The notes beneath the pieces are model-generated. The model was not told the DNA's origin and did no database searches. It worked only from the letters and a program-made list of their open reading frames with translations. Both the position numbers and the translations under genes were made by a program. Positions 6,471-55,035 of a DNA stretch of 64,000 nucleotides are shown here, piece by piece; position 1 is the first letter of the stretch, and every line of letters starts with the position of its first letter. This DNA is from Acipenser ruthenus (taxonomy: Eukaryota): contig NC_081214.1 of the NCBI RefSeq assembly GCF_902713425.1, forward strand, positions 10,816,641 to 10,880,640, written 5' to 3'.

Positions 6471-8675
6471 TGGAAAAGTGGTTCTCCAGATATATGCCAA
6501 CATGTAAGTGTGACGTGCAGACGGACGGATGTTCTGACAGACAGACAGACAGCCCCCTATGTCCCCAGGATATGGTATGATCAATAATTTAGGTTAAATA
6601 ATGTTAATACCAATTTCATGACAATTGCATTAGCGTTTTTTCAGATAGTAGAGAAATCATACCACCTTCACTATATCCCTTTTGCGGGTGGTTTCATCTT
6701 ACCCTGAATGGAAAGGGCTTCAAAAATGGTATATTCTTTTACCTGTGTGTCATTCATGTAATTGGGTTTCCAATTGTCTTTTTATCTGTTTTTCATCAAG
6801 TCATTGCGTTGTGATGCACTGGCTAATTGCTACTGTGTCTTCATAGTAGTACAAGCCAGCCGCATCTAGTGAACACCTACTGTGTATCGCCAGAAATAAA
6901 AGGAAGCTTTATCCTATGTACACAAGACAGCACTAATCTAGCCTGTGTTACTCATTGAATAAATCTACAGTCTAAAAGAAACAGTGTTTGAGTGACTGCA
7001 ATAAGAACCACTCACAATGATTGCAAACATCATGCATAGATAAGGTTCTATAAAAACAAATATTTTCTTTAATAATACATTTCTTATCGGCTAATATCCA
7101 ATTATGTATGTTCTGCATTATTCTATATTATTGTTTCTGCTTACAGTAGATCATCATTTACCAGACTTAACTAGTGGAACATTTCTTTACAAAATCAGTT
7201 TCAGGAGAGACAGAAATGACCGCTGCACTTCTATTACCATTACTGTATACAGTAAAAAATAAACTGTTTGATCGTTTAAGTTTTGGAAGATGATACAGAC
7301 CACACACTTTGACATTTACAGTTGGTGCACAGCTGGATTTTGTGATTCCATTCAGGTGGTCTCCAAATTTAACTATTTCACTGCAACTTTGTTTTAACCC
7401 CTGGAAACATCAATGACTCTGTTTCACATATCCATTTTACTTCATGTTTATAAACCATTCGATCTGAAATGACATTCCTTTTAAATTAAGCCCTGTGAAA
7501 GCTTTGTTTTGTTCATAGAAGTTCTAGTTTTAAAGTGTAATGTTTCAATACAGCAATGGTTTTGGTGCCGCAGTGAGACAGGTCCCTTGAGGTTTTACAC
7601 AAGCAAGCCAACTAGCTGAAATCAATTGTATTATTGATCACCAATTAGATAAAATGTTAATTTAAAAATAGTTTGGAAACAAAGGTTATTATTTTGAACT
7701 TCATGGAATCAATAAACAAATTGTGTTGTAGAAAGACTTAGTACACCCCCTGTTTACAAATCAAACGCAAAATTGGTTCTGAAAAAAAAACTAAATAATT
7801 CCAGGAAATCCTACCTCATATATATTGCCATTATTTCATACGTTTTAGATTTTAATTTATGGAAAAACGCACACATTATGGTAAAGGTGAGTTTGATTTT
7901 TGAACGGTATTTTATTTGAAGCTGTTAGGAAAGAGAATGTTGAAATACTTAAATGAAACTTAATAAATTAATGACAAAATATTTTTAATGTCAAAACATT
8001 GACTGTCACAATAGGGCGTTTGATTTTATAATCACGCATTGCCACTGTGCGAGAGTTTATTAGTAGATGGAAAACATTGGACGCGAGTGTGAACATGAGA
8101 ATGCTTATTGAAAATTTTCCAAAAAAGAATATTGGGTTTTTTGGTAAATTCTTTAGCCCGGTTTTGAAAGTTAACAGCAGCGCCATTCATTAGGTTGTGT
8201 TAGCATTATTACAAAAAAAAAAAAAAGATGAATTATGTGTTTAATAATTCAGATTATGTGCATATCACATGTTTAATCTGTTGTGTATACTGGGCCAAAG
8301 CCGGCTCAGGTCTGTGCTCAAGTGTAAACGGGTGACTCAGATGATAAGAATCTTCTAATCCGATCGACTCCGAGCTGGTTCTGGTTGTAAGTATAAACGC
8401 ACTAACAGAATGGGGAGGGTATGGAATGGGTACCTAGTCATGCTGAATCACTGCAATCCTTTACAACCCGACTTCAATCAGCTACAAGGAACTGGATAAG
8501 TACTGGTGGGATGAAGGGCCTTTTCTTATATTCTTATGATATAAATATTCAGCTGATCCTGTGTTAAAACCTCTTGTTGTAGGTCTGTGTGGGGAAGGCT
8601 GAAAAAGAAAACGCAATATCTGAGGCAGCTGCAACAGGAAGACTCAAACTGGTGGTATTTGGATGTAACACTCAC

Positions 8676-8770
8676 GAGAGCATGGTCGAACTTGAAGGTG
8701 CTGATGTAGTAGGCAGGAATGTCAGCGGCAGCCAGGGATTCAGATATCTGAGCCACGATCCCACACTCAT
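8676..8770 (-). CDS. CASTOR1-like: CASTOR-like coding exon: (D)ECGIVAQISESLAAADIPAYYISTFKFDHAL
   Basis: Matches human DECGIVAQIAGPLAAADISAYYISTFNFDHAL. Acceptor ctctctcag|AT, donor GCTCTC|gtgagtgtt. The six-frame ORF 8526..8852 reads through the donor into intron sequence. Confidence 0.8.
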
Positions 8771-8900
8771 CTGAGAGAGAGACAGAGAGGCAGACAATCA
8801 CACACGATCCCACACTCATCTGAGAGAGAGACAGAGACACACGATCCCACACTCATCTGAGAGACAGGGATAGGCAGACAATCACACACGATCCCACACG
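8750..8900. repeat. Tandem repeat of a ~35-bp unit (ACACGATCCCACACTCATCTGAGAGAGAGACAGAG), ~4 copies, starting in the intron just upstream of the CASTOR exon at 8676-8770 and overlapping that exon's first ~20 bp
   Basis: Direct tandem repetition. Confidence 0.8.
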
Positions 8901-9109
8901 CACCTGAGAGACAATCACAAAACAGACTTTCAATGAAGAATTAGGAGTATAGCGATACAATAGTCAGGATACAATACATATTAAACAGGCTACAATATGA
9001 TATTACAGTACATGTGATGGTCCTCATGGGGTAGTTTTACTGTGATGCATAATAAGATCAAATTATCATTTCATGACTCATTTGTTAATGAAATGAGTTA
9101 GGGAGAGTA

Positions 9110-9270
9110 TGTATTCAACTATAATGTTGTTGAAGCTGACACCCTGGGATCCTTCAAGAAGCTGCTTGATGAGATTCTGGGATCAATAAGCTACTAACAA
9201 CCAAACGAGCAAGATGGGCTGAATGGCCTCCTCTCGTTTGTAAACTTTCTTATGTTCTTATGTTCTTATA
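9110..9270 (+). mobile_element. 5'-truncated CR1-like LINE 3' end (tail fragment)
   Basis: Contains ...gacaccctgggatccttcaagaagctgcttgatgagattctgggatcaataagctactaacaaccaaacgagcaagatgggctgaatggcctcctctcgtttgtaaactttcttatgttcttatg, identical to the 3' ends of the full copies. Confidence 0.85.
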
Positions 9271-9669
9271 AAATAGTCTTATTCTTCATTGAAGAAGCAT
9301 TTGGTGAACTACAGTAAGCTATGTTGTGCTTCTGGTATTTTTTTGGTCCAGCCTATTCCGATAGAATATATCATGGAAAGAAAGGCTTGTGCATCATCAA
9401 TATAAGAGGAATCTTGGCCCATGATTGGATTGATATATGGCATGAGATTTGAAGATTTTTGGGTTGCTGGTCTCTCGTACTGTTTGGATAATTTAAAACC
9501 TGAATGCAGTGGGCAGGCTCATGAGAAAAAACATACGCTGTTACAAAATGACAGCAAGTGTAGCTCACAAAATAATCCCATAACTCCTCTCTGTTGTGCA
9601 CTTCCATTTTTATATAGGTCTCACGTGTCCACTATTGAAAGAAAGAAACGCTACTGTAATTTTAAAATA

Positions 9670-9880
9670 TGATATCTGGTACTACAAACCTCTGTTTGCA
9701 AGCCATGCTTTCAGTTAATGTTGCACTTGCTTGGTCACTCTTGATGGTGAAATTCTACCCTTCAATGGCTTCTTTCCTATCAATAAACAAATCAGCTGTT
9801 TCCCCACCGAGTGGTTTGCTTTCAGCTAGTAACATGGCCCAGAAGACACTGCTGAGGCGACCCAGGAAGTACAATATATT
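9670..9880. repeat. Unclassified interspersed repeat (~210 bp) with a second copy at 26890-27120
   Basis: The two loci share ...tggtactac...gccatgcttt.ag...gtgaaatt.t...ttcagc.agtaacatg.cccaga.gacactgctgagg.ga... Confidence 0.55.
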
Positions 9881-10044
9881 TTACAATGTTTTAAAATGAA
9901 AATAAATGTTAACATTTGTTTTTTTAAAAACATTTGACACCTACATATGGAGTTGATGTTCACTATTTTGTTAGCACCAATTCCATTAAGTATTGGAGAT
10001 TTGTGGGCGAGTTTATAGACATACACAGCCTCGCTCTCACTCAC

Positions 10045-10127
10045 CGAAGCCCAGTGGCTGCCCTCCGATCCTCACCATCTTCCAGAGCTCTCCGGAGGCG
10101 CTGGTGAAGAGCACATTAAGGGGGAAC
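10045..10127 (-). CDS. CASTOR1-like: CASTOR-like coding exon: (R)FPLNVLFTSASGELWKMVRIGGQPLGF(D)
   Basis: Matches human KFPSDLLLTSSSGELWRMVRIGGQPLGFD. Acceptor ctccctcag|G, donor GGCTTCG|gtgagtgag. Phase 2 in, phase 1 out. Confidence 0.8.
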
Positions 10128-10439
10128 CTGAGGGAGACAGCATGCAGTCACGAGATATGAACACACTGCTGCCAGCTATAGAACCAGGATCTACACAGCT
10201 AACTCTGCTGGATCTGAACACCATCCCTGTTAGATTACATACTTAAACCATTTAGAAAGGTTGGGAAGTCAAAATCTGTTCTGATTCTTTCCTGCTTTTT
10301 CAGTATAGGCATATGGGAGATACCCAGACTGAAAAAGCAGGAAAAAACAACCTTAAAACAGAGACAAGAATTGGAAACAAAATAACATAAAAGATATGTC
10401 ACTGAAACTTACCTTAAGTTTAAACTCAGCAAAGGTCAT

Positions 10440-10600
10440 TAATGTCAGCTTATTAATGTCAGAACTTTGTCAATTTGAGTCTTAAAGGATCCCAGGGATT
10501 CGCATTAACAACGTGACTAGGTAACCCATTCCATACCTTCACCACTCTCTGTGTCAAGAGGTGTCTCCAACCAAACAACATGAATGTCACGTGGGTCAGA
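10440..10600 (-). mobile_element. CR1-like 3'-end fragment (reverse)
   Basis: Same tail family: ...ggatcccagggattcgcattaacaacgtgactaggtaacccattccataccttcaccactctctgtgtcaagaggtgtctcc. Confidence 0.65.
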
Positions 10601-10931
10601 GAATAACCCATCTTTCCATTCTACCTTAAAGTCTGGAAACTCCCTGTGACAGAGCAGAGGCTCTGCACACGGCTGTGTGAGTTTGGTGAAGGAAGCTGGA
10701 ACCAAGATGGCCACCCTTGCACAGCAACAGGGCATTGTTTAATTGTTTGATTGTTGGATTAATCGAGTGATTGAAGTTTGAATGGAAAAGTGGCATGAGG
10801 CCAGGTGGTGATTGGATGATGGAATCAATTAAGCCCCTGGCCACATAGTAACAAAGGGAACAAAAGGGAACAAAGGAGTATTTGTTTGGTAAGAGTGTGT
10901 CAGAGATGTGTCAGTGAAGGTATGTTGCCCA

Positions 10932-10932
<1 letters not shown>

Positions 10933-11006
<74 letters not shown>
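10933..11006. repeat. (GA)n microsatellite, ~37 repeats. Others in the window: (CCT)n 5093-5127, (ATT)n 12465-12535 with poly-C 12434-12449, (GA)n 26387-26414, (TAA)n 44644-44702, (ATT)n+poly-A 48816-48882, poly-T 24703-24722, complex (CA/TA)n 62480-62640.
   Basis: Simple-sequence runs visible directly. Several six-frame ORFs (e.g. 6342..6584, 12365..12595, 10886..11113) are artefacts of them. Confidence 0.95.
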
Positions 11007-11010
<4 letters not shown>

Positions 11011-11137
11011 CTGGATAGCCGAAGCTTGGGTGTTATATTTTGTTTGTTTTGAAGAGTTTGTAGGGTTTTTGTTTAAACGTTTAGTTTCTTCCAGTTTTGA
11101 CGTATTTTGTTGAACAAAAGTGCACCAAGGCTCTTAA

Positions 11138-11768
11138 CCCTTAGCGGTCCATTTATTCAGCGCGTCTCAGGCGCGTCAGGTCCAATTTATTTTCACACGC
11201 ACAGTTTATTTTAGATGCGCTGTTTAAAAGTATTTTCTTTCACAGTAAAACAGGTTTAAAAGGCACTGCATATCAACAGGACACTCAGTACTGCATCTCC
11301 AGCCCCGCCCCACCCCTCGTTCGCAGTTTTTTTCGCATACCTCTTGATAGTAGTGCATACTGATAAATCATCACCTGATCACTTGTTTTATCGCCAAACT
11401 CCTCAATAATGCGATCCAAGTCATTATTTTATTACTAGAACATCTAAAAAAAGCTCTGCACATGTCTGTGATGTTCTTTGAGCGCTGGATGCAAAAGCAG
11501 CTATCTTGTTTGTTTATGTCTGTGTTATCTATGTGATGCCGGGGCTATCTGTATTCATGAGATACGTCCCTTTGCTTTTTTTTTCGGCTTCTCTGGGCTC
11601 CTATCGATCTCACTCAGCCATTGAATGATCTTCTCGGCTTTTTCCGGAGAAAAAACGACTAGAGACCTGTTTTTTGCGTCTTTTTGATGATGTTGGACAG
11701 GGTCCAACATTGGACTGGAAAGGGAAAATTGCAGTGTTGGACCAGGTCCGACTTAGAACCGCAAAGGG
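11138..11768. mobile_element. piggyBac-type MITE (631 bp). The TIR is CCCTTAGCGGTCC...GAACCGCAAAGGG. The TTAA target-site duplication is at 11134-11137 and 11769-11772.
   Basis: The termini are 5'-CCC...GGG-3' with ~13-bp inverted repeats, flanked on both sides by TTAA. Subterminal GTCGGACCCAGTCCGAC palindromic repeats are present. A second copy lies at 15592-16252. Confidence 0.75.
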
Positions 11769-12015
11769 TTAAACTGTAGTTCTGTGTTTGGGGTTAGGGT
11801 TAGGGCAAGCCTTTACTGCCCACCACTACGCCACACTCCCCTAGTTCAGAGAGTCACCTACCTAGGAGGCTCTATCAGTCTGGAGTTTACCTTGGAATAG
11901 TATCATGAATACAAAACATAAATAACTCCACTTTGGGAATAGAGTCTACCAGTAGATAGGGAGTTATTTTTTATAACAGGCTGCCCGGTGTCATGTTTCC
12001 CTCCTAATCACCTAC

Positions 12016-12126
12016 CTCTTCTGTGTCTCCTCATCCATCACCAAGGAGATGTAGCCTTCGATCAGAGAGAAGGAGAAGAACCTGATGTACTCCAAATCAT
12101 CACTGGGTGCTGCAGACTCCTTCACC
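12016..12126 (-). CDS. CASTOR1-like: CASTOR-like coding exon: (G)VKESAAPSDDLEYIRFFSFSLIEGYISLVMDEETQK
   Basis: Matches human ITFFAFSLIEGYISIVMDAETQKK. Acceptor gtgtttcag|G, donor CAGAAGAG|gtaggtgatt. Confidence 0.8.
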
Positions 12127-12164
12127 CTGAAACACAGACATACACTCTCTCACACACACACACA

Positions 12165-12350
12165 CAGAACGAGGGGAGGCCACTTGGTCCATCTATGCTT
12201 GGTTCCTAGTAGTTGATTGATCTCAAACCTTTGTCAAGATGGGGTCTTAAAGGATCCCAATGATTCAGCATCAACAACATGATTAGGTCACCCATCCCAT
12301 ACCCTGTGTGAATTAGTGTCTCCAACCCTTTGTACGAAGTCCACTTAATT
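12165..12350 (-). mobile_element. CR1-like 3'-end fragment (reverse)
   Basis: Same tail family: ggaggccacttggtccatctatgcttggttcctagtagttgattgatctcaaacctttgtcaagatggggtcttaaaggatcccaatgattcagcatcaacaacatgattaggtcacccatcccataccctgtgtgaattagtgtctcc. Confidence 0.7.
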
Positions 12351-12466
12351 GCCAGCAGCATCCTGTGGTTCTGGTTTCTATGCTTAAAATATTAGTTCAG
12401 GTTTGTCAACTTTTAGATTTGAAAAGCTTCAATGCCCCCCCCCCCCCCATAGTTCTTTGTTCTATG

Positions 12467-12534
<68 letters not shown>

Positions 12535-12781
12535 GCTTGCTACCAGGAGCAAGTCACTTAACCTCCTTGTGCTCCGTCCTTCGGATGAGACGTAAAAAAA
12601 ATGCTTCCCACGGACGCTTGAGCCTTTTTAGTGAACCAACAGAGGTAAATAAATAAACAACTTAAAGTTGTAGTGATATAGCAACAATGGCATTGCTGTG
12701 GTGCTTTCCTTTTTAATAATTTACTTGGGAATTCAATTATTACCCCGTATCATGCCACAACAATGCTACTATCCCTTAAAT

Positions 12782-15152
12782 CAGGGGTTCCCCCTGAGGC
12801 CCACCTGAGCAGCTGCAATACGCACTGAGGCCCACTAACACTTCCTGAGGAAAATGATTCATTGTGATTATAACATGCTGTGGCAAGGTGGTTTGTAGTG
12901 CACAAGTGTAGAGGTGACACAGTGCTTAGAAAAACCACGGGGTTCAGTCTCAAAATGATAACAACAATAAACACACAATTTAAAACACCTACACAATCAC
13001 CAGTCCAACAGCGAGTGCTCCGGGTGCAGCAGTGTTGTGAATACGTGAAATAGTGCTAACAGTGGTGCAGTGCAGTCCGGGTTTGATGCTGGCTGAATAG
13101 CGACAGCTCCCAGATATTTAGCCATCTACAATGACAACACTTAACACTCATGGTTTCATTTCACTCATGGTCATTCCATAACCATAACAAAGGAACAGAT
13201 CGCTCAGCCACACACCCTGACATACCTTCAGTCACGCCCCCTTTGGTAGCGACTGCAATCACATCTCCTCCAATCCATGACTCGCACATCGCCTACCGCA
13301 GTAAGGCGTTGACTTCTAGTATTGTGGCTTCGCCCCCTTTTTGGATGGCCGACTTCCGACTGACCCTGGAATGAACTGTCAAACCATCCAGTCCGGGGCA
13401 CACTGTTCCTGTTATACAGCCTCACAGATCGGGAGGGAGATTGTTGACTCGGATTCATTCGCTCTCTGTTACATATCCCAACGCTCAGAGTGGAGCCGAA
13501 GGAGACGAAATGCTGATTTTTCTTTTGAAAGCTCTGATTGTGTCTTCTTGTACAAGCAAATGTCCACCATTTCCCTGAAGTGATGAATTTAGTTTGTTGA
13601 CTTCATTAAATGTCAGCCAGGTAAGCCAGACAGGAAAGGAACAGTGAATCCATAAAATGTTCTGCCAGCGGGGAGCCACGTTGCTGCACCAATTCTTTAA
13701 GTTCACCTCAGAGTTCGTACACATGTTATACCACTTTTCCTTTGGAAAGCCATCTTACTTCAGAATGAAGCAAAACGTGCTCATGGCCAGCCCCCATTTC
13801 AGCACATAAAGCACTGAACAGACAAGTGTTGAGAGGATTTGCCTTTACCAAATTAACAATCGTAACAACCGAACCCAGCGCATCATGCAGCTCTGCGTTC
13901 ATTTCTTTCCTTGCCAGTGCCTGTCTATGCAGCATACAGTGGGTAGCAGTAACATTCGGTGTGACTTCTCACACTAGAGAGACACAACTTACCCGTCATA
14001 GCAGCCGCTCCATCGTTACATATCCCAACACATTTCTTCCAGTCCAGTTTGACGTAATGAAATCATTCGAATAACTGAAAGATCTCAGCACCAGTTGTTC
14101 AGGTTGGTAACTCTTGGCAGAATAAAAGTGCTTCTGTTAGTTTGGTTTTGAGCATAGACCTCATGTAAATCACAAGCTGTGCTAAGTTTGCAAAATCGGT
14201 GCTTTCGTCGAGCTGCAATGCAAATGAACCGACATAACAAATCATTTCGATGAGCTGATCTTTCACATGTATGCTCATTTCACTGATGCGCTGGCAAACT
14301 GTGTTATTAGAGAGAGGTATGCTTCCTATTTTTCTTCCAGCTTCTTCGCCTAGGACCTCTCGACACATATCTTGCACGGAAGACAAAATCAAATCCTCTC
14401 CAATAGTGTTTTTTTTACACTTTGCAATTCTCAGTGCAACCAAGTAGGATGCTTTTAAGCACTTTTCTATTTGTGTTGTGGTTTTCTCCAGTACTCGGTT
14501 CATTTTTTTTCCTCACAGAAACTTACAGCAGTTTATTCTGCAATGCACTGTGTTTTTACTTCAGGTAACGCTCAAGTTTTGATGGCTTCAGACACTCATT
14601 CGCTAATGTTTCGCAGCACATAACACACTGAGGCAACAAGTACTCATCCGACCCGGAAAAGAAAAATCCAAGCTTTAAGTAGCTGTCATCATAATTTCTT
14701 CCCACTATTCTTTTTTCTTTTTTTGTCCGGCTCATTTTGTGTACTGGTAGCTGTAGATGGTCCAGGACTTTCATGATCCTCTCCATCAGTGATTCCTTCT
14801 CCTTTTCGTATAACAAATCTATCCATGTCTGCTTAAATTATCACCTGCAGTTTTTTACAGTTGTAAATGGTGTGGACTGTGTGTACATTGCTAGGTTACC
14901 TTGCAGTTGAACGCAACGTACTCGCGAGAATTAAACTTGACATATGGCAGCTTGTTTTTTAAACAGTTTTTTTCTATGGTGTGGTCAACATATACAGCTC
15001 AACCTTACATTTATTTAGCTTTTACTTAGATTACACGAGTCACGTGGAGTTATTTATTTAAGCACTTGTCAATGTACATATAGACTGGAGAATGCAGTTG
15101 CACCGGCGGACCACCAAGGACTGTTTCGCGGCCCACAGTTTGGGAACCCATG
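12782..15152 (-). mobile_element. hAT-superfamily DNA transposon (Charlie/Buster-like, 2371 bp) with degraded transposase remnants and a perfect 8-bp TSD CCTTAAAT (12774-12781 and 15153-15160). The TIRs are CAGGGGTTCCCC... and ...GGGAACCCATG.
   Basis: Minus ORFs give the BED-like/hAT N-terminus (RNYDDSYLKLGFF...PQCVMCCETLANECLKPSKLERYLK, 14556..14816), a middle region (14099..14503), the hAT hallmark LLHSEVRWLSKGKV (13726..13935) and a C-terminal part (13485..13724). The termini begin CAGGGG / end CATGGG. An identical 8-mer flanks both ends. Confidence 0.8.
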
Positions 15153-17006: not shown

Positions 17007-17099
17007 CTGCACACAGACAGAACATCATCATCATCGCTGGGCATTGTCCAGAAACACTCAAGCAAAACAATATCATTGAATAAACAAAGAAGAACTAGG

Positions 17100-18159: not shown

Positions 18160-19200
18160 GCTCCCATAGTCCGGGAAAACACATGCAGACTGTGGCAGGG
18201 ACACTATGAGGTGACAGAAGCAGCAGGTCCAGTGAATTATAAAATACGGCAGCTGGATCGCAGAAAAAAGGAGCAAATATATCACATTAATCTCTTAAAA
18301 CCTTGGAGGGACAGCGAACCAGTTTTAATCACCGGTAGGGAAACAAGTCAGAGCGAAAGTGTGAAAGTGGCCCTAATTTAGGAGAGGAACAGTGTAGAAC
18401 AAAGCTGGGAGTTATAGAGGAGTCTAACAGCAAGTGGACTAGTCTTATAGTGCTAGTGCCAAAACCAGATGGGACACAGCATTTCTTTAACAATTGTAGG
18501 AAATTAAACAAAGTGTCCAAGTTTGACGCCTACCCTATGCTCCGGGTAGATGAACTATAAGAAAAGTTAGGCAAAGCCAGATTTGTGTCCACACTAGGTC
18601 TAACTAAAGGTTACTGGCAGATACCGTTGACGGACATGGCAAAGGAGAAAACAATATTTGTCAATCCTGAAGGTTTATTCCAGTATATGGTGAAGCCCTT
18701 CGGTTTGCATGGTGCCCCTGCAACCTTTCAGAGGTTAATAGACACAATACGCATCAAGCTTATTCGGATGACATTGTGGTATACAGTGAAGACTGGGAAT
18801 CACACCTGGGTAAAGTCAAGGCTGTTTCATACAGCCAGGAAAGCAGATCTTACTGCCAACACAGAAAAATGTCATGTAGGAATGAATGAGGCATGTAGTA
18901 GGGGGTGGGTTGATTAAACCTCAGTGCATTTAAGTCAAGGTTATAAAAAATTGGCCCAAATCTGTAAACAAAAAACAGGTGCGGGTATTTTTGGGTATTC
19001 ACTCTTATTACGGACCATGCTCCTCTGAAATGGATAAGGGTGAATAAAGAAAGAAATGCTAGAGTCACCAGATGTCTTTACAGCCATACCGCTTTACCAT
19101 AGAACACAGAGCTGGGGCAAAACATGGTAATGCGGATGGGCTGTCCAGGGTCCACTATCTCTCAGCTGAGTCCACTCTAACCCAGGGGTTTGAGCTCAGG
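18160..19200 (+). mobile_element. Ty3/gypsy-type LTR-retrotransposon pol fragment (RT core plus a downstream integrase-like piece), frameshifted
   Basis: 18480-18760 translates as F.NCRKLNKVSKFDAYPMLRVDEL...TLGLTKGYWQIPL...MVKPFGLHGAPATFQRL (RT motifs). 19080-19150 gives ...GAKHGNADGLSR. Confidence 0.7.
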
Positions 19201-19202
19201 GG

Positions 19203-22010
19203 ATGGATATGTGGTTTGGTAACAGAGGGAAATATGTCAGTCTAGCATTTAAAAGGGACCAAGAACAAAGTACACAGAAAGAGCACTTGCAACTACAAGC
19301 GCAAGTCAAAAAGGAAGTTAGAAAGGCCAAGAGAGAGATAGAAATGAACATTGCCAAGGGGGCTAAAACCAATTCCAAAAACTTTTTCCAATATTATAAC
19401 AGCAAAACAACATTCAAGGAGGAAGTAAAATGTGTAAGAGATACAACATCATACATGAAGAGAATACAACATCATACATGAAGAGAAAAAAATTGCAAGT
19501 ATATTAAATGATTACTTTTCACAAGTTTTTACAAAGGAGGATTGTAATTGTTCCCATTTAGAAGTGGAAGAACTGCAGTAGCAGCGGACTGACCACTAGA
19601 TGTCATCAGGATCAGCAATCAGAGTGGTAGCAAAACACCTGAGTTTAACACCACGGCAGTCATTTTGACGAAGTTTTCACTTTTAAAATTGTAATTACTC
19701 TGCGTGTTTGAAAGGTACGCGGTTGTCCATTCTTGACTTTTCCTAAGTCTATGTATTAGATACCCTGATGGGTATCTAATACACAGGGCAGCAGTGTGGA
19801 GTAGTGGTTAGGGCTCTGGACTCTTGACCAGAAGGTTGTGGGTTCAATCCCCAGTGGGGGACACTGCTGTTGTACCCTTGAGCAAGGTACTTTGCCTAAA
19901 TTGCTCCAGTAAAAACCCAACTGTATAAATGGGTAATTGTATGTAAAAATAATTTGATATCTGTATAATGTGAAATAATGTATAATGTGATATGTTGTAA
20001 CAATTGTAAGTCGCCCTGGATAAGGACGTCTGCTAAGAAATAAATAATAATAATAATAATTTGAAAGGCAGGATAGCAAAAGAAAAACAACAAAAAAAAC
20101 CTTAAAATCCCCTCCACCTAGAACCGCCAAAACTGTCACTTTGACTGCCTTTTACAATACATGTTTTTATTTTGAATATAATCTACAATAGTTATATAAT
20201 ATTTTATTTTTACATACAAGCCTGTTGTTATTTCTACTGGACCCGGCAACCATCAATTCCTTTGTTTTGTACAAGGAATGCCCCATGGAAAATTTAAGTA
20301 GGAGAGATTTCATCTTGAAGCTAGCCACAGCGCTTCGGCTGAAACATTTCGATCAGAAAACAGCAGCTCAACCAGATTCTGTGCTGCACTGCGTGACACA
20401 CATGCAAAAGAAAACATATGTTACTTTTGTTTAAAATTAAAAACTACTTTCATTTTTACAGTTTTTTATGTACATATACAAAACTGTTAAAGGCAGAAGT
20501 GTTAAAGGGACTAGGAGCTCTTAAAATAAACAAATCCCCTGGACCAGATGAGATCCTCCCAATAGTACTCAAAGAAATAAAATAAGTTATTTACAAACCG
20601 CTAACCAAGATCATGCAACAGTCTCTTGAGACAGAGGTTGTACCGACAGACTGGAGAATTGCAAACGTAATACCGATCCACAAAAAGGGAGACAAAGCCG
20701 ACCAGGTAAGTACAGACCAATAAGCCTGACTTCTATTATATGTAAACTTATGGAAACTATAATAAGATCCAAAATGGAAAATTACCTATATGGTAACAGT
20801 ACTTGGGAGACAGTCAGCACGGTTTTAGGAAAGGGAGACCGTGTCTAACTAATCTGCTTGATTTTTTGGATGATGCAACATCGACAATGGATAATTGCAA
20901 AGCATATGACATGGTTTATTTAGATTTCCAGAAAGCTTTTGACAAAGTCCTGCATAAAAAATTAATTCTCAAACTGAACGCAGTAGGGATTCAAGGAAAT
21001 GCATGCACAGGGAGTGGTTAACATGTATAAAACAGAAAGTACTGATTAGAGGAGAAACCTCAAAATGGAGCGAGGTAACCAGTGGTGTACCACAGGGATC
21101 AGTATTAGGTCCTCTGCTATTCCTAATCTACATTAATGATTTAGATTCTGGTATAGTAAGCAAACTTGTTAAATTTGCAGATGACATAAAAATAGGAGGA
21201 GTGGCAAACACTGTTACAGCAGCAAAGGTCATTCAAAATGATCTAGACAGCATTCAGAACTGGGCAGACACATGGCAAATGAAATTTAAGAGAAAAGTGT
21301 AAGGTACTGCACACAGGCAATAAATATGTGCATTATAAATATCATATGGGAGATACTGAAATTGGAGAAGGAATCTATGAAAAAAAGGAGTTTATGTTGA
21401 CTCAGAAATGTCTTCATGTCTTCATGTAGACAATGTGGGGAAGCTATAAAAAAGGCCAACAAGATGCTTGGATATATTGTGAAAAGTGTTGAATTTAAAT
21501 CAAGGGAAGTAATGTTAAAACTTTACAATGCATTAGTAAGACCTCATCTAGAATATTGTGTTCAGTTCTGGTCACCTCGTTACAAAAAGGATATTGCTGC
21601 TCTAGAAAGGGTGCAAAGAAGAGCAACCAGAATTATCCCTGGTTTAAAATGCATGTTGTATGCAGACAGGCTAAAAGAATTGAATCTATTCAGTCTTGAA
21701 CAAAGAAGACTACGCGGCGATCTGATTCAAACATTCAAAATCCTAAAAGGTATTGACAATATCAACCCAGGGGACTTGGGGTCACAAATGGAGATTAGAT
21801 AAAGGGGCATTCCGAAAAGAAAATAGGAGGCACTTTTTTACACAGAGATATGAGGGTCTGGAACCAACTCCCCAGTAATGTTGTGGAAGCCGACACCCTG
21901 GGATCCTTCAAGAAGCTACTTGATGAGATTCTGGGATCAATAAGCTACTAACAACCAAACGAGCAAGATGGGCCGAATGGCCTCTTCTCGTTTGTAAATT
22001 TTCTTATGTT
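19203..22010 (+). mobile_element. Fragmented CR1-like LINE copy. A piece at 19203-19560 and the RT/3' part at 20497-22010 are split by ~940 bp of inserted sequence that includes a tRNA-derived SINE.
   Basis: 19203-19560 aligns to the region ...RAFKRDQKQSTQKE...FFQYYNSK of the intact copy. 20497-22010 aligns to the RT (SPGPDEILPIVLKE ... ADDIKIGGV ... LKLYNALVRPHLEYCVQFWSPRYKKD) and the CR1 tail. Several frameshifts are present. Confidence 0.8.
19785..20065 (+). mobile_element. tRNA-derived SINE. It has a tRNA-like head with A and B boxes, a body, a conserved tail TGTAAGTCGCCCTGGATAAGGACGTCTGCTAA (HpaI/Deu-type) and an (AATAAT)n 3' end. It is inserted inside a CR1 fragment.
   Basis: The head reads gggcagcagtgtggagtagtggttagggctctggactcttgaccagaaggttgtgggttcaatcccc (TGGAGTAGTGG / GGTTCAATCCC boxes). 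The tail block is shared with salmonid HpaI-type SINEs. Confidence 0.8.
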
Positions 22011-22376
22011 TACCCCTGTTTCCACACTAGTTTCTTTTGAAATGTGTATTTTATTATAGATTCATATTTTGAAGTAGTGCTTTATATGTGGTAAGTTAGA
22101 AAATAAACCCTTTTATGTTTAATTGTTCATTTAAATACAGCGTTTCGGCTGTGCATATGTTTGATATGATGTGTTTGAATAAAACTTTTGAGTTGTAGCC
22201 GATAGTTTCATTTTAATACTGATGTTGTTTAGAATGTAACCGTCATAATGACTGCCAGCGGTGGTTTTAGGTATGAGTATAACCACAGTGGTTCCAGTGT
22301 TAATGAGGTAATTGGATCATTTGAAATGGACTGTTATTCAATTAAGCACTAACCATAAAAAAACATTTTGGGTGTG

Positions 22377-25300
22377 TGTCACAAAGACGGCCGGAGTGGG
22401 TGGCGTCAGACCAGAAGCAGGAAGTAAAGACAGAGATTTGTGGTTTGGTGAAGCTGAGCGAATGCTTTCGCTCAGCATTTAATAACAGAACAGAAAATAA
22501 AAGGTTTGAAACACAAAAAACACTGGACACGGCACTTGCGCCAAAATAAATAGACAAACAAAACGGACTAGACAGTGCACAGACAGACGAACAAAACACG
22601 GTGAGCAGATTTAACTTACTTTTACAATTACCTCCGTCTCCAAACCCGTTGTCCACTCACCGAACACCTAACCCCGACTGAAAGAAACGTGCATCTATAT
22701 ATACTGTTGTGCTGGGATTCAATTACTAATTAATTATTCACTTGAATCCCAGCACATTAATTAATTCTGTGCAACCCCGTGCTTACATATTACATTTAAC
22801 CAGCACGTGAAGTGATTTGTGCTCTCCTTGTGCCTAAATACAAATCTACACTTTTTAAATACACGTGAAACACAGACCCGTTTATATCCAGACCTCCCCC
22901 ACGACCTCCGGCAGTGAAACTGCTGCAGTGGGAGCAGGTCTCCGGACCTCCCCCACGACCTCCGGCAGCGAAACTGCTGCAGTGGGAGCAGGTCTCTGGA
23001 CCTCCCCCACGATCTCCAGCAGCGAAACTGCTGCTGGGGTTGGTGGTCTCCAGACCTCCTCCCCCTTCTTCGTGGCCGACAGCTCCCCTTTCTGGGGCTC
23101 CGGCCACCGTACTCCCTGTGGTGGAGGTACGGGAAGCAGAGACAGCTCCTGCTGTTCTGCTTCTGGCAGTGGCAGAGGCAGAGGCAGCTCCTGCTCCTCT
23201 GCTCCTGGAAGTGGCAGAGGCAGCTCCTGCTCCTCTGCTCCTGCCGGTGTAGGTGGCGGAGGCAGAGGCAGCTCCGGCTGCTCTGCTCCTGGAAGTGGCA
23301 GAGGCAGCTCCTGCTCCTCTGCTCCTGGAAGTGGCAGAGGCAGCTCCTGTTCCTCTGCTCCTGCCGGTGTAGGTGGCGGAGGCAGAGGCAGCTCCGGCTG
23401 CTCTGCTCCTGCCGGTGAAGGTGGGAGCAGCGTGTAGTCTCCTGCCGATGGAGGTGGGAGCAGCGTGTAGTCTCCCCCTTTTCCAGGGGACTGGTGCTGC
23501 TCTGCCTCTCTTGCAGGGAACTGGTGCGGCTCCGCTCCTATTGCAGGGGACTGGTGCGGCTCTGCCTCTGAAGGGAAAACCAGCAGGCATTCTTCCTCTG
23601 CTGGTTGTGCTGGGGAAACCAGCAGGCATTCTTCCTCTGCTGGTTGTGCTGGGGAAACCAGCAGGCATTCTTCCTCTGCTGGTTGGGCTGGGGAAACCAG
23701 CAGGCATTCTTCCTCTGCTGGTTGGGCTGGGGAAACCAGCAGGCATTCTTCCTCTGCTGGTTGTGCTGGGGAAACCAGCAGGCATTCTTGCTCTGCTGGT
23801 GAAGGTGGGAACAGCTGCCTCTCAGGCTTCGGATTCCCGCGGTCCTCTCGTCTGGGCGCTGGACGCTCGCGGCCCCCCTGTCTGGGCGCTGGACGCTCGC
23901 GGTCCCCCCGTCTGGGTGCTAGTTCCTCCTCTTCATACTGGGTGGGGCATATGGCTAATGTGTGCCCATAAGCCCCACAGCCAGGGCATAACTCTGCCGC
24001 GAGGTTCTTTAAAAAAACCTCCCAGCCATCATCCCCGACCTCCTCCCTTTTGGGCTGTGGACGCCCGACTCCTCCCTTTTGGGCTGTGGGCGTTCGGGCT
24101 CCTCCCACTCAGGCGTAGGAAGTTTGGGCTCCTCCAGCTTGGGCTGTGGACGCTCTGGCTCCTCCCGCTTGGGCTGTGGACGCCCCGACTCCTCCCGCTT
24201 GGGCTGTGGACGCCCCGACTCCTCCCGCTTGGGCTGTGGACGTTCGGGCTCCTCCCACTCAGGCGTAGGAAGTTCGGGCTCCTCCCGCTTGGGCTGTGGA
24301 CGCTCAGGCTCCTCCCGCTCAGGTACTGGAGAGGGCAGCGACTGCTCCTCTCCCTCTTGCTCACTGGAAGGCATCCCTCCCATGTCTGCAGCTAGGTACC
24401 CCAGCACCACCATGGTGAGGTCACGAACGGATGCCGGGTTGTGCTGTTGCTCCCAGTCCTCCCATCGTTTCCCATCTCGCATCTGCAGCGCGTGAATAAC
24501 CCAGGGGAGGTCACTGGCGAAGTTCCCCTCGGGGTGCACCAGCCAGTCCCATATTTCCCGGGACGGTGGGGAACCCGGTGGCAGTGGGGTGGCTACTGCC
24601 CCGTTGTGGCTGTCCTCCTCCCAGCCCGGCATGCAGGATGAGGGCTGCAAGCTGCTTCCGCTGCTTCCTGCAGCTCTTTCTTCCCATCCTCGCTTTACTA
24701 TTTTTTTTTTTTTTTTTTTTTTTTGTAATCCAAAACCCCCTCTCCTGGTCTGACGGTTGGAGGCGCTGTTTATCCCACGATGACACCACGTGTCACAAAG
24801 ACGGCCGGAGTGGGTGGCGTCAGACCAGATGCAGGAAATAAACAGACAGAGATTTGTGGTTTGGTGAAGCTGAGCGAATGCTTTCGCTCAGCATTTAATA
24901 ACAGAACAGAAAATAAAAGGTTTGAAACACAAAAAACACTGGACACGGCACTTGCGCCAAAATAAATAGACAAACAAAATGGACTAGACAGTGCACAGAC
25001 AGACGAACAAAACACGGTGAGCAGATTTAACTATTTACTTTACTTTTACAATTACCTCCGTCTCCAAACCCGTTCTCCACTCACCGAACACCTAACCACG
25101 ACTGAAAGAAACGTGCATCTATATATACTGTTGTGCTGGGATTCAATTACTAATTAATTATTCACTTGAATCCCAGCACGTGAATTAATTCTGTGCAACC
25201 CCGTGCTTACATATTACATTTAACCAGCACGTGAAGTGATTTGTGCTCTCCTTGTGCCTAAATACAAATCTACACTTTTTAAATACACGTGAAACACAGA

Positions 25301-25401
25301 CCCGTTTATATCCCGTGTACCAATGACTATACACCAACATTAACACACGCACGCAACATACAACACATAATAAGCACACAGGGGCGGGGCACATTGCCAC
25401 A
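22377..25401 (-). mobile_element. LTR element on the minus strand, likely non-autonomous or internally deleted. The 5' LTR is 24791..25401 (611 bp). The 3' LTR is 22377..22889 (513 bp, lacking ~100 bp at its U3 side). The 1.9 kb internal region is dominated by coding minisatellites and encodes a CCHC zinc-knuckle protein. It is flanked by a 5-bp TSD, GTGTG, at 22372-22376 and 25402-25406.
   Basis: The direct repeats are highly similar (with small indels) and have TG...CA termini (TGTGGCAATG......TTTGTGACA). A PBS-like TGGTGTCATCGTGGGA lies 2 nt inside the 5' LTR. The minus ORF 22882..24108 contains CPGCGAYGHTLAIC (C-x2-C-x4-H-x4-C). A solo LTR of the same family sits at 54393-55027. Confidence 0.8.
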
Positions 25402-26183
25402 GTGTGTCAGAAAGGAGAGCAAGAGAGAGTGCTGGAGAGTGGAGTTAGAACCTGTGAGTAACAAGAACTGGTGTTTAAGAGACAAGTAAACAGCTTAGCT
25501 ATCCTGTGGCAGACAGGGAAGCAACCTTAAATTGTGTAGGTAGTATCGTCAAGTGATTTTTGTTTGTTTGTTTGCTTTGTGTTGTATAATTTGTGAATAA
25601 AATTGTGTTGGAACTGCAAAACAAAGTCTCGAGAGTTTTGTACCTACACCGCTGTACCCAGCCACGTTCCCACAATATGTAAAACATTTATGTGTGCATG
25701 GAAAAGATTTTGAATAATTTTAGAAATATTAAATGAAACTCTAAGTTCAATAACTACTAGAACTCTTTTTCATTGAAAAGACTTCAAGTTGAAAGTTTGT
25801 CGTTGAATTTAAGTTTCTTTAAGTATTTCTAAATGTAGCACTATTGAATGTTTAATAGTCATGGAAGACTTTTGTAATAAATTAAACTGTAAAAATAACT
25901 ACAGCAGGCCTCTATATTTGGCCTGCATATTTTGTTTCCCATTCCCGAAAACCCTTTCCGAAAATCTGGATTTCTCTGCATTGGGATTTCTCATTATTAT
26001 TCTCATTAACCGGGATTACATTGAAAAGAAAGTGCTGTGATTTGCACAACACAGGATGCAACAAGGGTAAAGTCATGTGTTTCCTGTAAACACTGCAGGG
26101 GGTTCTGTAACCCTTCACGAGTTAAATTCAATTGGAACAGAATAACTGCAGTCACGGTGTGGACTGTGCTGTGCTCAGCTTAC

Positions 26184-29194: not shown

Positions 29195-32100
29195 AAACTT
29201 CGTCAAACACAACCACTAGAAATCCAGACAGCCAACACATTTGAGCCACTTCAACATTTAGATGACCAAAACCAACATCACGAGAATGAAAGAAACAACA
29301 CCCAGGACCCTATAAACAGTGCTGACCAGGCAGCAAAAAGAAGGGAGGTCATGATTGTTGGGGACTCCATACTGAGAAACACAGCAAGTTCAGTTAGCAG
29401 TTTGGACCCCCTTACTACAACAGTGTGCTGCCTTCCAGGAGCCTCAGTCAAGCACATCACTGAGAATGTGGACAGGCTCCTAGAACGAACAGGAGATGAC
29501 CCGGTAGTAGTCGTCCACATTGGTACAAACAACATTGGAAGAGACAGGCCAAGATACCTGCAAAACAAATTCAGAGAGCTAGGAAGGAAATTAAAAGACA
29601 AGACCAAAACTGTGGTATTTTCTGGGATACTGCTGACGCCTTGCAAAGGACCATATGGACAGCTGGAAATACAAAATCAAAATGCATGGCTGAAATCGTG
29701 GTGCACACAGGAAGGCTTCACCTTTCTTGAACATTGGAGCACTTTCTACAACAAGGACTATCTATACAGGTGGGACGGACTGCACTTAAACAGAAAGGGA
29801 ACCAATCTACTCGGAGAAAGGATCCTTCAGGCGGTACAGAAGCATTTAAACTAGAAAGGAAGGGGGGAGAAAACAAAAAAACAGAAGGGAGACTACATCA
29901 AAACAAGAGCAACAACTCAGGTAAGACCACTATTAAATGTATTTATCTTAATGCTAGAAGTCTCAGAAACAAAATGTTAGAACTTGAAGCTACTGCACTA
30001 ACAAGCAACTACGATATGATAGGTGTTACAGAAACTTGGTTGTCTGAGAGTGATGGAGACGAATATAATATTAGTGGGTACACACTGTATAGGAAAGACA
30101 GGCAGGACAGAAGAGGCGGAGGGGTAGCGCTATACATAAGAAATAGCCTTGAAGCCCAGGTGTTAAATCAGGACAAAGAAAACAATGCAGAATCAATATG
30201 GGTCAGAATAATGGACACAAATTCAAAGGGCATAATAATAGGAGCATGCTATAGACCGCCAAATTCAGACGCTGAGCAAAATAATCTGTTATACAATGAC
30301 ATTCGAAATGCGTGTAGAAAAGGAGAAGCCATACTAATGGGGGATTTCAACTTCCCCTGTATAAAATGGGAAAACCCAATGGGGGGCACGACGGACGAAA
30401 TTGAAATGGTGGAAATGACAAATGACTGCTTCCTAACGCAATTTGTCAAGGCACCGACTAGAGGGGAGGCATGCCTTGACTTAGTCTTCTCAAATAATGA
30501 AGACAGAATAACTAAAACAGAGGTCAGAGAGCCATTGGCAAACTCAGACCACAACATGGTCTCATTTGAAATATTTTTTAAAACCCCAAAAGTAATGACT
30601 AAAGCTAAGGTTTACAATTTTAGAAAAGCAAACTACGAAGACATGAAACAGAGACTAACAGAAGTAGATTGGAGTAAAATAGAGAAAACTTCCACAGAAA
30701 AAGGGTGTCTGTCTTTTAAAAATGTAGTACTAGAGGCACAAAACAATTACATCCCAAAAGTAGACAAATCTAAATCTAAAACAAAATGGCCAAAATGGTT
30801 TAATAGATCAATTAAAAAAAATATTCAGCGAAAAAAGGCACTTTACAGAGCGTTTAAAAGAGACCAAAAACAAAGCACACAGAAAGAGTACTTGGAACTG
30901 CAAACATAAGTCAAAAAGGAAGTTAGAAAGGCCAAGAGAGAGACAGAAATCAATATTGCTAAGGGGGCTAAAACCAATTCCAAAATGTTTTTCCAATATT
31001 ATAACAGCAAGAGAACATTCAAAGAGGAGGTTAAATGTCTAAGAGACACAAATGGCAAAATCATAGATGAAGAAAAAAAAATAGCAAATATATTAAATGA
31101 TTACTTTTCACAGGTTTTTACAAAGGAGGACACGGACAACATGCCTGACATGTCGACCTGTTCCTATCCAGTTTTAAATAACTTTAGCATAACAGAGGCA
31201 GAAGTGTTAAAGGGACTAGGAGCTCTTAAAATAAACAAATCCCCTGGGCCAGATGAGATCCTCCCAATAGTACTCAAAGAAATGAAAGAAGTTATTTACA
31301 AACCGCTAACCACGATCATGCAACAGTCTCTTGACACAGGGGTTGTACCAACAGACTGGAAAATAGCAAATGTAATACCAATCCACAAAAAGGGAGACAA
31401 AACCGAACCAGGTAACTACAGACCAATAAGCCTGACTTCTATTATATGTAAACTTATGGAAACTATAATAAGATCCAAAATGGAAAATTACCTGTATGGT
31501 AACAATATCCTGGGAGACAGCCAGCATGGTTTTAGGAAAGGGAGATCATGTCTAACTAACCTACTTGACTTTTTTGAGGATGCAACATTGAAAATGGATA
31601 ACTACAAAGCATACGACATGGTTTATTTAGATTTCCAGAAAGCTTTTGACAAAGTCCCGCATAAAAGATTAATTCTCATACTGAACGCAGTAGGGATTCA
31701 AGGAAATGCATGCACATGGATTAGGGAGTGGTTAACAGGTAGAAAACAGAAAGTACTGATTAGAGGAGAAACCTCGAAATGGAGTGAGGTAACCAGTGGT
31801 GTACCACAGGGATCAGTATTAGATCCTCTGCTATTCCTAATCTACATTAATGATTTAGACTCTGATATAGTAAGCAAACTCGTTAAATTTGCAGACGACA
31901 CAAAAATAGGAGGAGTGGCAGACACTGTTGAAGCAGCAAAGGTCATTCAAAATGATCTAGACAGCATTCAAAATTGGGCAGACACATGGCAAATGAAATT
32001 TAATAGAGAAAAGTGTAAAGTATTGCATGCGGGCAATAAAAATGTGCATTATAAATATCATATGGGAGATAGTGAAATTGAAGAAGGGAACTATGAAAAA

Positions 32101-32670
32101 GACCTAGGAGTTTATGTTGACTCAGAAATGTCTTCATCTAGACAATGTGGGGAAGCTATAAAAAAGGCCAACAAGATGCTTGGATATATTGTGAGAAGTG
32201 TTGAATTTAAATCAAGGGAAGTAATGTTAAAACTCTACAATGCATTAGTAAGACCTCACCTAGAATACTGTGTTCAGTTCTGGTCACCTCGTTACAAAAA
32301 GGATATTGCTGCTCTAGAAAGAGTGCAAAGAAGAGCAACCAGAATTATCCCATGTTTAAAAGGCATGTCGTATGCAGACAGGCTAAAAGAATTGAATCTA
32401 TTCAGTCTTGAACAAAGAAGACTACGCGGCGATCTGATTCAAACATTCAAAATCCTAAAAGGTATAGACAATGTCAACCACAGAGAATTGTGAGGGTCTG
32501 GAACCAACTCCCCAGTAATGTTGTTGAAGCTGACACCCTGGGATCCTTCAAGAAGCTGCTTGATGAGATTCTGGGATCAATAAGCTACTAACAACCAAAC
32601 GAGCAAGATGGGCTGAATGGCCTCCTCTCGTTTGTAAACTTTCTTATGTTCTTATGTTCTTATGTAAATG
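29195..32670 (+). mobile_element. CR1-like non-LTR retrotransposon (LINE), 5'-truncated but otherwise near-intact. ORF1 C-terminal part with an SGNH/GDSL esterase domain runs 29351..29854. ORF2 (APE endonuclease + RT) runs 29734..32493 with a single in-frame stop near 30907. The tail ends in (TTCTTATG)n octamer repeats.
   Basis: ORF1 carries GDSIL...HIGTNNIG...DGLHLN esterase blocks, as described for CR1-like elements. ORF2 has EN motifs (YLNARSLRNK..., IGVTETWL) and RT motifs (FRKGRSCLTNLL, YLDFQKAFDKVPH, FADDTKIG). The octamer-repeat 3' end is typical of the CR1 clade. The copy is about 96% or more identical to the one at 49560-53440. Confidence 0.9.
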
Positions 32671-54306: not shown

Positions 54307-54392
54307 TAATAGTAATAGCAAACTATTTACAATGCTGGCTGGGACACAAAACCTATACAGAATTAAACCTATACAGAATTAAAGTAGGTCTC

Positions 54393-55027: not shown

Positions 55028-55035
55028 GTCTCTCA

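Follow-up and report, generated by a model that had tools for sequence, protein, structure and literature searches.

We analyzed a stretch of 64,000 nucleotides of the Acipenser ruthenus genome (assembly GCF_902713425.1, contig NC_081214.1, positions 10,816,641 to 10,880,640), hereafter the window, in which a long terminal repeat (LTR) element occupies positions 22377–25401 inside an intron of the host gene CASTOR2. When joined, the minus-strand exons that flank it, one with its end at 26184 and the next with its start at 17006, align seamlessly with residues 69–170 of human CASTOR2 (E 2e-57). Another ACT_7 exon is found near 8.6 kb, and the intron between the flanking exons measures 9,177 bp, with GT at 26183 and AG at 17007. 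Element and gene both run on the minus strand, in agreement with a preliminary description of this DNA that had placed the element in sense orientation within a 9.2-kb host intron. Our reading, to which we give a probability of about 85%, is that the element is a copy, now inactivated, from a family of non-autonomous LTR retrotransposons that is confined to Acipenseriformes and whose single open reading frame (ORF) is expanded by coding minisatellites.

Terminal repeats and candidate priming sites

The features that delimit the element, together with a second copy of its LTR elsewhere in the window, are the following.

24791–25401, minus strand: 5' LTR, 611 bp, TGTGGCAA...TTTGTGACA, with TG...CA termini
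22377–22889, minus strand: 3' LTR, 513 bp, ending ...TTTGTGACA; LTR positions 1–88 (the 5' part of U3) are missing, from BLAST and MAFFT comparison with the full LTR
25402–25406: target-site duplication GTGTG on the element's 5' side, the same pentamer as at 22372–22376
22372–22376: target-site duplication GTGTG on the element's 3' side, identical to 25402–25406
24771–24788, minus strand: candidate primer-binding site TGGTGTCATCGTGGGATA, separated from the 5' LTR by 2 nt; family consensus, conserved across copies
54393–55027, plus strand: solo LTR of the same family, with its own target-site duplication GTCTC at 54388–54392 and 55028–55032

Structural hallmarks of LTR retrotransposition are present, together with 5-bp target-site duplications (TSDs) and multiple dispersed copies. 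BLAST coordinates and the pentamers on both flanks bear out the 611/513-bp LTRs and GTGTG duplication of the preliminary description, and the solo LTR from which it had concluded that the family was mobile is confirmed, in the orientation opposite to that of the element. The LTR pair is 96.8% identical by BLAST, with 7 substitutions in 513 aligned bases (Kimura two-parameter distance, K2P, 0.0138) and two indels of 8 bp and 2 bp; the solo LTR stands at a K2P of 0.08–0.09 from the pair. The duplicated target sites are 5 bp long throughout and differ among copies, being GTGTG for the window element, GTCTC for the solo LTR and GTAGG for a related element (L004) of Acipenser sinensis. That the direct repeats represent a segmental duplication of host sequence, the scenario that the preliminary description had itself named as its possible refutation, has a probability next to nil: nothing was found in its favor, and it is contradicted by the TG...CA termini with their 5-bp TSD, by the second, solo copy with a different TSD, and by independent copies on other contigs, one of them flanked by GTAGG, with a primer-binding site as well as a polypurine tract where they are expected.

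Within the 5' LTR, a TATA motif, TATATATA, at LTR positions 275–282 (25120–25127) is a putative promoter, and ATTAAA at LTR positions 503–508 (24894–24899) a putative poly(A) signal. Just upstream of TATATATA we observed a perfect 14-bp inverted repeat, GTGCTGGGATTCAA...TTGAATCCCAGCAC, with an AT-rich loop of 19 nt (25133–25179), which is kept in all three LTR copies of the window (22709–22756 in the 3' LTR, 54615–54661 in the solo LTR). A hairpin with a perfect 10-bp stem, GCTGAGCGAA-AGCA-TTCGCTCAGC (24869–24892), directly follows the ATTAAA, together with which it spans 24869–24899, and recurs at equivalent positions in the other LTRs; motif and hairpin may plausibly form a poly(A)/R-region signal.

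The segment comprising the primer-binding site (PBS) and leader reads TGGTGTCATCGTGGGATAGCCGCGCCTCCAAGCGTCAGACCAGGAGGGG, and the leader of the window copy contains an A24 tract (24701–24724, minus strand; T24 on the plus strand), an A-rich leader being found also in the related elements L001, L002 and L004. The PBS agrees with the complement of the 3' end of human tRNA-Leu(CAG), TGGTGTCAGGAGTGGGAT, at 15 of 18 positions with one gap, the compared sequence being human (PMC7229842) and not from sturgeon, which suggests that a primer resembling tRNA-Leu is used. A scan with ARAGORN of the window and of 132 kb of A. sinensis loci turned up no tRNA genes. PMC11640988, citing Butler et al. 2001, reports a tRNA-Leu PBS for the Gmr1-like sturgeon element Abr1 (GenBank AJ245365), and Abr1 may serve as a lead, taken from the literature, on an autonomous partner.

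At the other end of the interior, intact relatives finish their ORF with ...LKPPFPARDYVLDCWIFKGGGGR and a stop codon, followed by the polypurine tract and LTR position 1. The tract is G-rich, reads AAGGGGGGAGG...CACAAGGGGGGGTATA and abuts the LTR directly, CACAAGGGGGGGTATA being followed by TGTGGCAA. It is missing before the 3' LTR of the window copy, where a 54-bp tandem array abuts LTR position 89 instead.

Related copies, absence of pol and decay of the window copy

To follow the family beyond the window, five A. sinensis loci (L001–L005) were fetched and mapped with probes for the LTR, the leader plus N-terminal domain (N-domain), the zinc knuckle and the C-terminal tail of the ORF. They yielded the further family members that the preliminary description had proposed to look for: five elements with complete or near-complete LTR pairs, two of them in one tandem arrangement at L002, all with the same ORF. 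The copies examined share the order LTR, leader and N-domain, repeats, C-tail, LTR; their LTRs measure about 610–650 bp with TG...CA termini, and one long ORF fills the whole interior of 1.7–2.9 kb. Interiors are 1.7–2.4 kb at L001, L002 (two units), L003 and L005, and the 2.9-kb interior of L004 (TSD GTAGG) would be explained by an inserted fragment at about 10900–12850 of that locus, which by eye encodes a reverse transcriptase (RT) C-terminus of the long interspersed nuclear element (LINE) type, ...LVQALVLSRLDYCNSLLAGLP....

None of the five A. sinensis elements contains pol according to probe maps, translations and Pfam, the translations showing nothing beyond the ORF other than the apparent LINE-type insertion in L004. 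In the window element no ORF or Pfam match for protease, reverse transcriptase or integrase (IN) was found, Pfam returning only a sub-threshold zinc knuckle, so that the absence of pol noted in the preliminary description holds for the window copy and for its relatives alike. A protein search with the repaired ORF gave 122 matches, of which all the named ones are hypothetical proteins of A. sinensis or A. ruthenus. When an N-domain profile built from alignment A1 was scored against 1.84 billion representative proteins, only 126 matched; RT or IN domains occur in 0 of these 122 + 126 (248) proteins. Ten clusters matched by the profile were checked, seven from A. sinensis, two from Polyodon spathula and one unnamed ENA protein that looks unrelated, a range suggesting that the family is restricted to Acipenseriformes (sturgeons and paddlefish). 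No prior description of it in sturgeon was found in the searchable literature, and it is apparently undescribed and unusually repeat-rich.

The window copy is decayed, as the following features illustrate.

24009–24632, minus strand: upstream portion of the split ORF, opening with the ATG at 24632–24630 and closed by a premature stop
24054–24071, minus strand: 1-bp deletion splitting the ORF within one 30-bp unit, GAGTCGGGCGTCC instead of GAGTCGGGGCGTCC, from three-frame translation against the neighboring units
22882–24108, minus strand: downstream part of the split ORF, 408 codons, running straight into the truncated LTR, with the normal C-terminal tail and polypurine tract gone

The ORF listing confirms the minus-strand ORFs of 213 and 408 aa previously reported. 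Measured against L001, about 174 bp of interior and 88 bp of U3 are missing from the window copy, or ~260 bp altogether; the C-tail probe matches it over the first 77 nt only, and the junction shows a GGA microhomology. A deletion of this size probably took away the C-terminal end of the ORF along with the polypurine tract and the initial 88 bp of the 3' LTR. It is most simply understood as a post-integration event, because the LTRs of a new insertion share one template and the 5' LTR is complete. Given the frameshift and the ~260-bp deletion, the copy appears to be dead and incapable of further transposition.

Because this deletion crossed the boundary between interior and LTR, the window copy taken alone could have lost a pol together with its 3' end, and the element might then be an internally deleted member of an autonomous Gypsy, BEL or endogenous retrovirus (ERV) family. 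We regard this as very improbable, since the shortfall against L001 is confined to the ~174 bp and 88 bp given above, pol is likewise absent from the five copies in which C-tail, polypurine tract and LTR start are intact and whose interiors measure 1.7–2.9 kb, and none of the related proteins carries an RT or IN domain. Non-autonomy is therefore a trait of the family and not a peculiarity of the window copy, and the architecture is that of a gag-only non-autonomous element, with a single maintained ORF at the gag position and with pol and env absent family-wide.

Under our reading of a non-autonomous family, the element would have been transcribed from its 5' LTR, and the RNA reverse-transcribed and integrated in trans by the enzymes of some autonomous LTR element. 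Insertion in sense orientation into the CASTOR2 intron would date to a few million years ago, the LTRs differing by 1.4%, and would have been followed by the 1-bp frameshift and the ~260-bp deletion. The window copy is inert at the CASTOR2 locus; two sense LTRs with ATTAAA in the intron could in principle affect host transcripts.

Candidates for the autonomous partner that came up in the protein searches were rejected. The C-tail query returned only two short sturgeon proteins without pol. Protein P0015, which joins the N-domain to a CCHC knuckle and protease, is a chimeric spliced gene model spanning 22 kb, whose distal element has no LTR similarity, and the long N-domain matches (up to 1078 aa) are gene models chimeric with host domains or else belong to an unrelated repeat protein, without RT or IN. 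Separately, we observed that the A. sinensis models P0125, P0129, P0182, P0014, P0015 and P0103 fuse transposon ORF exons to ADAMTS-, ADAM- and dystrophin-like, phosphatase or STK26 sequences, or to a retroelement 20 kb away; such fusions are probably annotation artefacts or exonised transposon fragments. The family is abundant in sturgeon assemblies, with more than 120 A. sinensis 'hypothetical proteins' deriving from it, and a curated family consensus would allow many spurious gene models (ADAMTS-, ADAM- and dystrophin-like fusions) to be removed.

The tandem-repeat open reading frame

The interior spans 22890–24790 (1901 bp), its minus-strand sense following from the ORF and the position of the PBS. 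Tandem Repeats Finder (TRF) detected seven arrays in it, covering 1162 of the 1901 bp (61%).

22887–23059, minus strand: 54-bp array, x3.1–3.2, in frame (RPAPTAAVSLPEVVGEV); deletion junction to LTR position 89 at the array end
23169–23424, minus strand: composite 36/48/84/120-bp array (GAEEQELPLPLP / GAEQPELPLPPPPTPA)
23406–23475, minus strand: 33-bp array, x2.1 (GDYTLLPPPSA)
23484–23569, minus strand: 30-bp array, about x2.9–3.0 (AEPHQSPA-type)
23573–23800, minus strand: 39-bp array, x5.8 (PAEEECLLVSPAQ), unit identity 97%; a 36-bp version occurs in relatives
23838–23920, minus strand: 30-bp array, x2.8 (RERPAPRRGD-type)
24040–24319, minus strand: 30-bp array, x9.4 (EEPERPQPKR)

The preliminary description had given the interior the right size (1.9 kb) and the largest 30-bp array about the right copy number (x~9). 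Its 57-bp unit (x3) is one of 54 bp (x3.2), its 36-bp unit (x6) is one of 39 bp (x5.8), as its own 13-aa unit implies, three further arrays (33 bp x2.1, 30 bp x2.9, 30 bp x2.8) had been omitted, and at 61% coverage the interior is not almost entirely minisatellite.

With the frameshift repaired, the window ORF encodes 583 aa, 19% of them Pro and 17% Glu, in the order non-repetitive N-terminal segment, EEPERPQPKR repeats, knuckle module and five further arrays. Its product is Pro/Glu-rich, modular and mostly disordered-looking. Across the family the modules comprise a small N-domain of three predicted helices that occurs as four interchangeable variants, a CCHC knuckle that is optional and a conserved C-tail, with tandem arrays between them. 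The two non-repetitive modules and the largest antisense ORF lie in the window copy as follows.

24375–24563, minus strand: N-domain, about 65 aa, predicted three helices, conserved across four subfamilies (alignment A1)
23935–24033, minus strand: zinc-knuckle module DDGWEVFLKNLAAELCPGCGAYGHTLAICPTQY, with the CCHC CPGCGAYGHTLAIC at 23947–23988, canonical CX2CX4HX4C
23373–24395, plus strand: antisense ORF of 340 codons, starting at GTG, without Pfam match, made of Leu/Pro/Gly-rich units that mirror the sense codons

The helices of the N-domain fall at residues 24–32, 38–64 and 69–83 in an AlphaFold2 model (mean pLDDT 71), and the four subfamilies, at 21–53% identity, share invariant W30, W57, Y79 and L80 (alignment A1). 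The single CCHC knuckle claimed for the minus strand is present and canonical; its module recurs in 56 of 120 related proteins, some of which carry it twice, and its Pfam scores lie below the cut-off (zf-CCHC_6 E 0.033 in the window ORF, E 0.049 among relatives).

The same units differ up to tenfold in copy number between family copies.

EEPERPxPxW unit, 30 bp: window x9.4; other copies x5.6, x23.6, x6.5
AEPHQSPARE unit, 30 bp: window about x2.9–3.0; others x3.3, x4.1, x7.5 (L001), x30.1 (L005)
GDYTLLPPPSP unit, 33 bp: window x2.1; others up to x7.8 (L001)
54-bp unit: window about x3.1–3.2; L001 x4.9, L005 x2.1, absent from L002

Arrays of 24–30 units at 98–99% identity indicate what would be very recent expansion, and arrays may expand and contract by slippage, unequal exchange or template switching of the reverse transcriptase. 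The two L002 elements, L002a and L002b, are identical in their 3' part and have different N-domain types. The locus itself (6593–12214) reads LTR–interior–LTR–interior–LTR, with a D-type N-domain (MTTAEDARKL...) in one unit and an A-type in the other and with 23.6 against 5.6 copies of the 30-bp unit; this tandem looks like a recombinant between two subfamilies. Since copy numbers vary, N-domains are swapped and the knuckle module is duplicated, the ORF seems to evolve through the exchange of modules and through gain and loss of repeat units.

One argument that the sense ORF is coding comes from the array periods. Across seven copies TRF distinguished about 11 unit types with periods of 27, 30, 33, 36, 39, 42, 48, 54 and 99 bp and multiples, all divisible by three (one line given as 31 bp describes a 30-bp array in another way), for which the chance would be (1/3)^11 if the types are independent. 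Because the periods are multiples of three while copy numbers vary so widely, we infer that the ORF is coding and that changes in the arrays are constrained to keep the frame. In L002b (515 aa) and L002a (756 aa), moreover, no stop breaks the sense frame between the first ATG beyond the leader and the polypurine tract, and the N-domain stays recognizable across subfamilies, with its four invariant residues.

Several observations weigh against this picture of a coding, gag-like ORF in a mobilised non-autonomous element. The ratio of nonsynonymous to synonymous substitution rates (dN/dS) of the N-domain among close copies is 0.41–0.88, from few substitutions and thus underpowered; several frames are open over the repeats, so that openness by itself is little proof. 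The intact 515-aa ORF of L002b has no knuckle and that of L002a an atypical one, so that a gag origin and a role in packaging are suggested rather than demonstrated. No capsid fold was found for the N-domain, whose profile had its best match to the PDB, an unrelated protein, at E 0.16. The PBS match to human tRNA-Leu is imperfect, the human sequence being the only tRNA-Leu compared, and protein searches with the N-domain/knuckle and C-tail queries matched no pol-bearing protein that could represent the partner.

Some of these points can also be read as those of a non-coding element resembling a large retrotransposon derivative (LARD), in which GC-rich minisatellites poor in stops give rise to the long ORFs of either strand by accident and the protein is either not produced or dispensable. 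The dN/dS values, the optional knuckle and the lack of a known gag domain would fit, as would the stop-free runs of more than 340 codons in several frames of relatives, and in all six frames of L005 (343, 384 and 359 antisense; 357, 594 and 420 sense), most arrays having zero stops in most frames. We nevertheless consider it unlikely, because the array periods are multiples of three in seven of seven copies, because in L002a and L002b only the sense frame extends all the way from that first ATG to the polypurine tract, and because the non-repetitive N-domain is kept at the protein level between subfamilies of 21–30% identity (E down to ~1e-10), which is not expected under neutral drift.

The 340-aa plus-strand ORF that the preliminary description saw left open by the repeats is present, and we judge it a by-product of the stop-poor arrays, because a stop-free unit, once multiplied, multiplies every open frame. 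Were it a real antisense gene carried by the element, its length would be noteworthy, as mononucleotide shuffles of the interior reach 340 codons in only 9 of 2000 cases and L002 and L005 have antisense stop-free runs of similar length. That control, however, takes no account of the tandem structure, which merely copies one stop-free unit many times over, the remaining frames of L005 are just as open, and the ORF begins at GTG, has no Pfam match and consists of Leu/Pro/Gly-rich unit repeats mirroring the sense codons, all of which makes an antisense gene exceedingly improbable.

As to the nature of the sense product, Pfam recognized no gag, capsid or pol family in the window ORF, the chimeric long matches or the intact relatives, only sub-threshold zinc knuckles, and the sole folded-looking segment, of ~65 aa, is too short for a capsid (CA) domain. 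A SCAN-like origin of the N-domain, considered because RWEDWEQQHNPASVRDLTMVVLGYL resembles the C-terminal helices of SCAN by eye, is not supported: hhalign of alignment A1 against five PDB SCAN sequences (A2) gave a probability of 5.3% over 26 columns, and Pfam SCAN is not matched. With the Pfam, PDB profile and SCAN comparisons empty and the knuckle optional, 'gag-like' is best used as a positional label with partial nucleocapsid support and no detected capsid homology. The preliminary description of a non-autonomous LTR element with a repeat-expanded gag-like gene stands, with 'gag-like' taken in this positional sense. The product is probably not a classical capsid, and we infer that it serves the element's own propagation, for example through RNA binding or packaging. 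More specifically, it might be a lineage-specific functional 'accordion' protein and not a decayed gag, combining a helical N-domain, an optional RNA-binding knuckle and hypervariable, frame-preserving Pro/Glu-rich minisatellites, and promoting the packaging of its own RNA into partner particles via disordered multivalent contacts, or playing a host role like those of Bik-1/Bik-2 and ERNI. This we hold to be quite unlikely; if it were true, variation in repeat number between copies would be functional diversity and not slippage noise alone.

Comparison with described elements and surroundings of the element

LARDs and terminal-repeat retrotransposons in miniature (TRIMs) resemble the sturgeon family in having LTRs, a PBS and a polypurine tract without pol and in being mobilised in trans. 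By definition they have no coding capacity (Wicker classification), whereas the sturgeon family keeps a long sense ORF (515 and 756 aa) with frame-preserving repeats. The arrays of Ogre/Tat-type plant elements lie in untranslated regions, whereas those of the sturgeon elements are part of the ORF, every one with a period that is a multiple of 3 bp. Both groups carry minisatellite arrays of varying copy number within an LTR element, and in the plant elements such arrays are reported to seed satellites (PMC7004042).

The closest described systems appear to be LTR elements that keep a gag ORF without pol, whose architecture and presumed parasitic or mutualistic lifestyle the sturgeon family would share. 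BHIKHARI-1 and BHIKHARI-2 (crestin) are gag-only endogenous retroviruses of zebrafish with many copies, including solo LTRs, and are likewise fish LTR elements with a single long internal ORF called gag, no pol or env, and no autonomy (PMC12067270). Going by its description, their Gag differs in having a coiled-coil, a capsid-assembly domain and a glycine-rich patch and in belonging to the lokiretrovirus lineage, whereas the sturgeon ORF, without a detected capsid domain, is ~60% in-frame tandem repeats and has N-domain relatives only in sturgeon and paddlefish. Chicken ENS-1 (ERNI), also compared from its description, derives from the ERV ENS-3/Soprano as a non-autonomous variant and has kept the coding capacity for a protein of Gag descent (PMC12067270); its autonomous relative ENS-3, sister to ERV-L, has been identified, whereas protein searches found no partner for the sturgeon family. 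Among plants, RLG_Quinta (also RLG_Sabrina and WHAM) of wheat is a gag-only non-autonomous Gypsy element that lost pol and kept its gag ORF, and its gag region evolves rapidly, with recombination between lineages, between flanks that remain similar (PMC11302176), a parallel to the N-domain swaps between L002a and L002b. It differs in its clear GAG homology, in its partner RLG_Cereba with common PBS, LTR termini and polypurine tract, and in being a plant element without coding minisatellites. The sturgeon family adds an early-branching ray-finned fish to the few vertebrate LTR elements with an ORF and without pol (BHIKHARI, ENS-1), and it is an extreme case of coding minisatellites evolving within a mobile element, usable for studying repeat dynamics during retrotransposition.

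The window around the element is mostly transposon sequence, and we list the following neighbors.

18585–18917, plus strand: isolated RT fragment of Gypsy/ERV type (Pfam RVT_1, E 2.5e-7), located like the element within the CASTOR2 intron, at a distance of 3.5 kb from it; no connection with the LTRs of the element was seen
19203–21802 (plus), 29351–32493 (plus), 46661–47200 (minus), 49974–53361 (plus): several copies and fragments that belong to a single LINE family, whose endonuclease and RT ORFs are near-identical from copy to copy
55401–56936, 57839–62228 (minus): different LINE-like RT ORFs
41664–42255, minus strand: minisatellite encoding a repeated peptide (ISLEFNLRLHLYCCADWGCVSLEFN...) in two overlapping ORFs
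14099–14503, minus strand: ORF of 134 aa (...FALQLDESTDFANLAQLVIYMR...) that looks hAT-transposase-derived by eye

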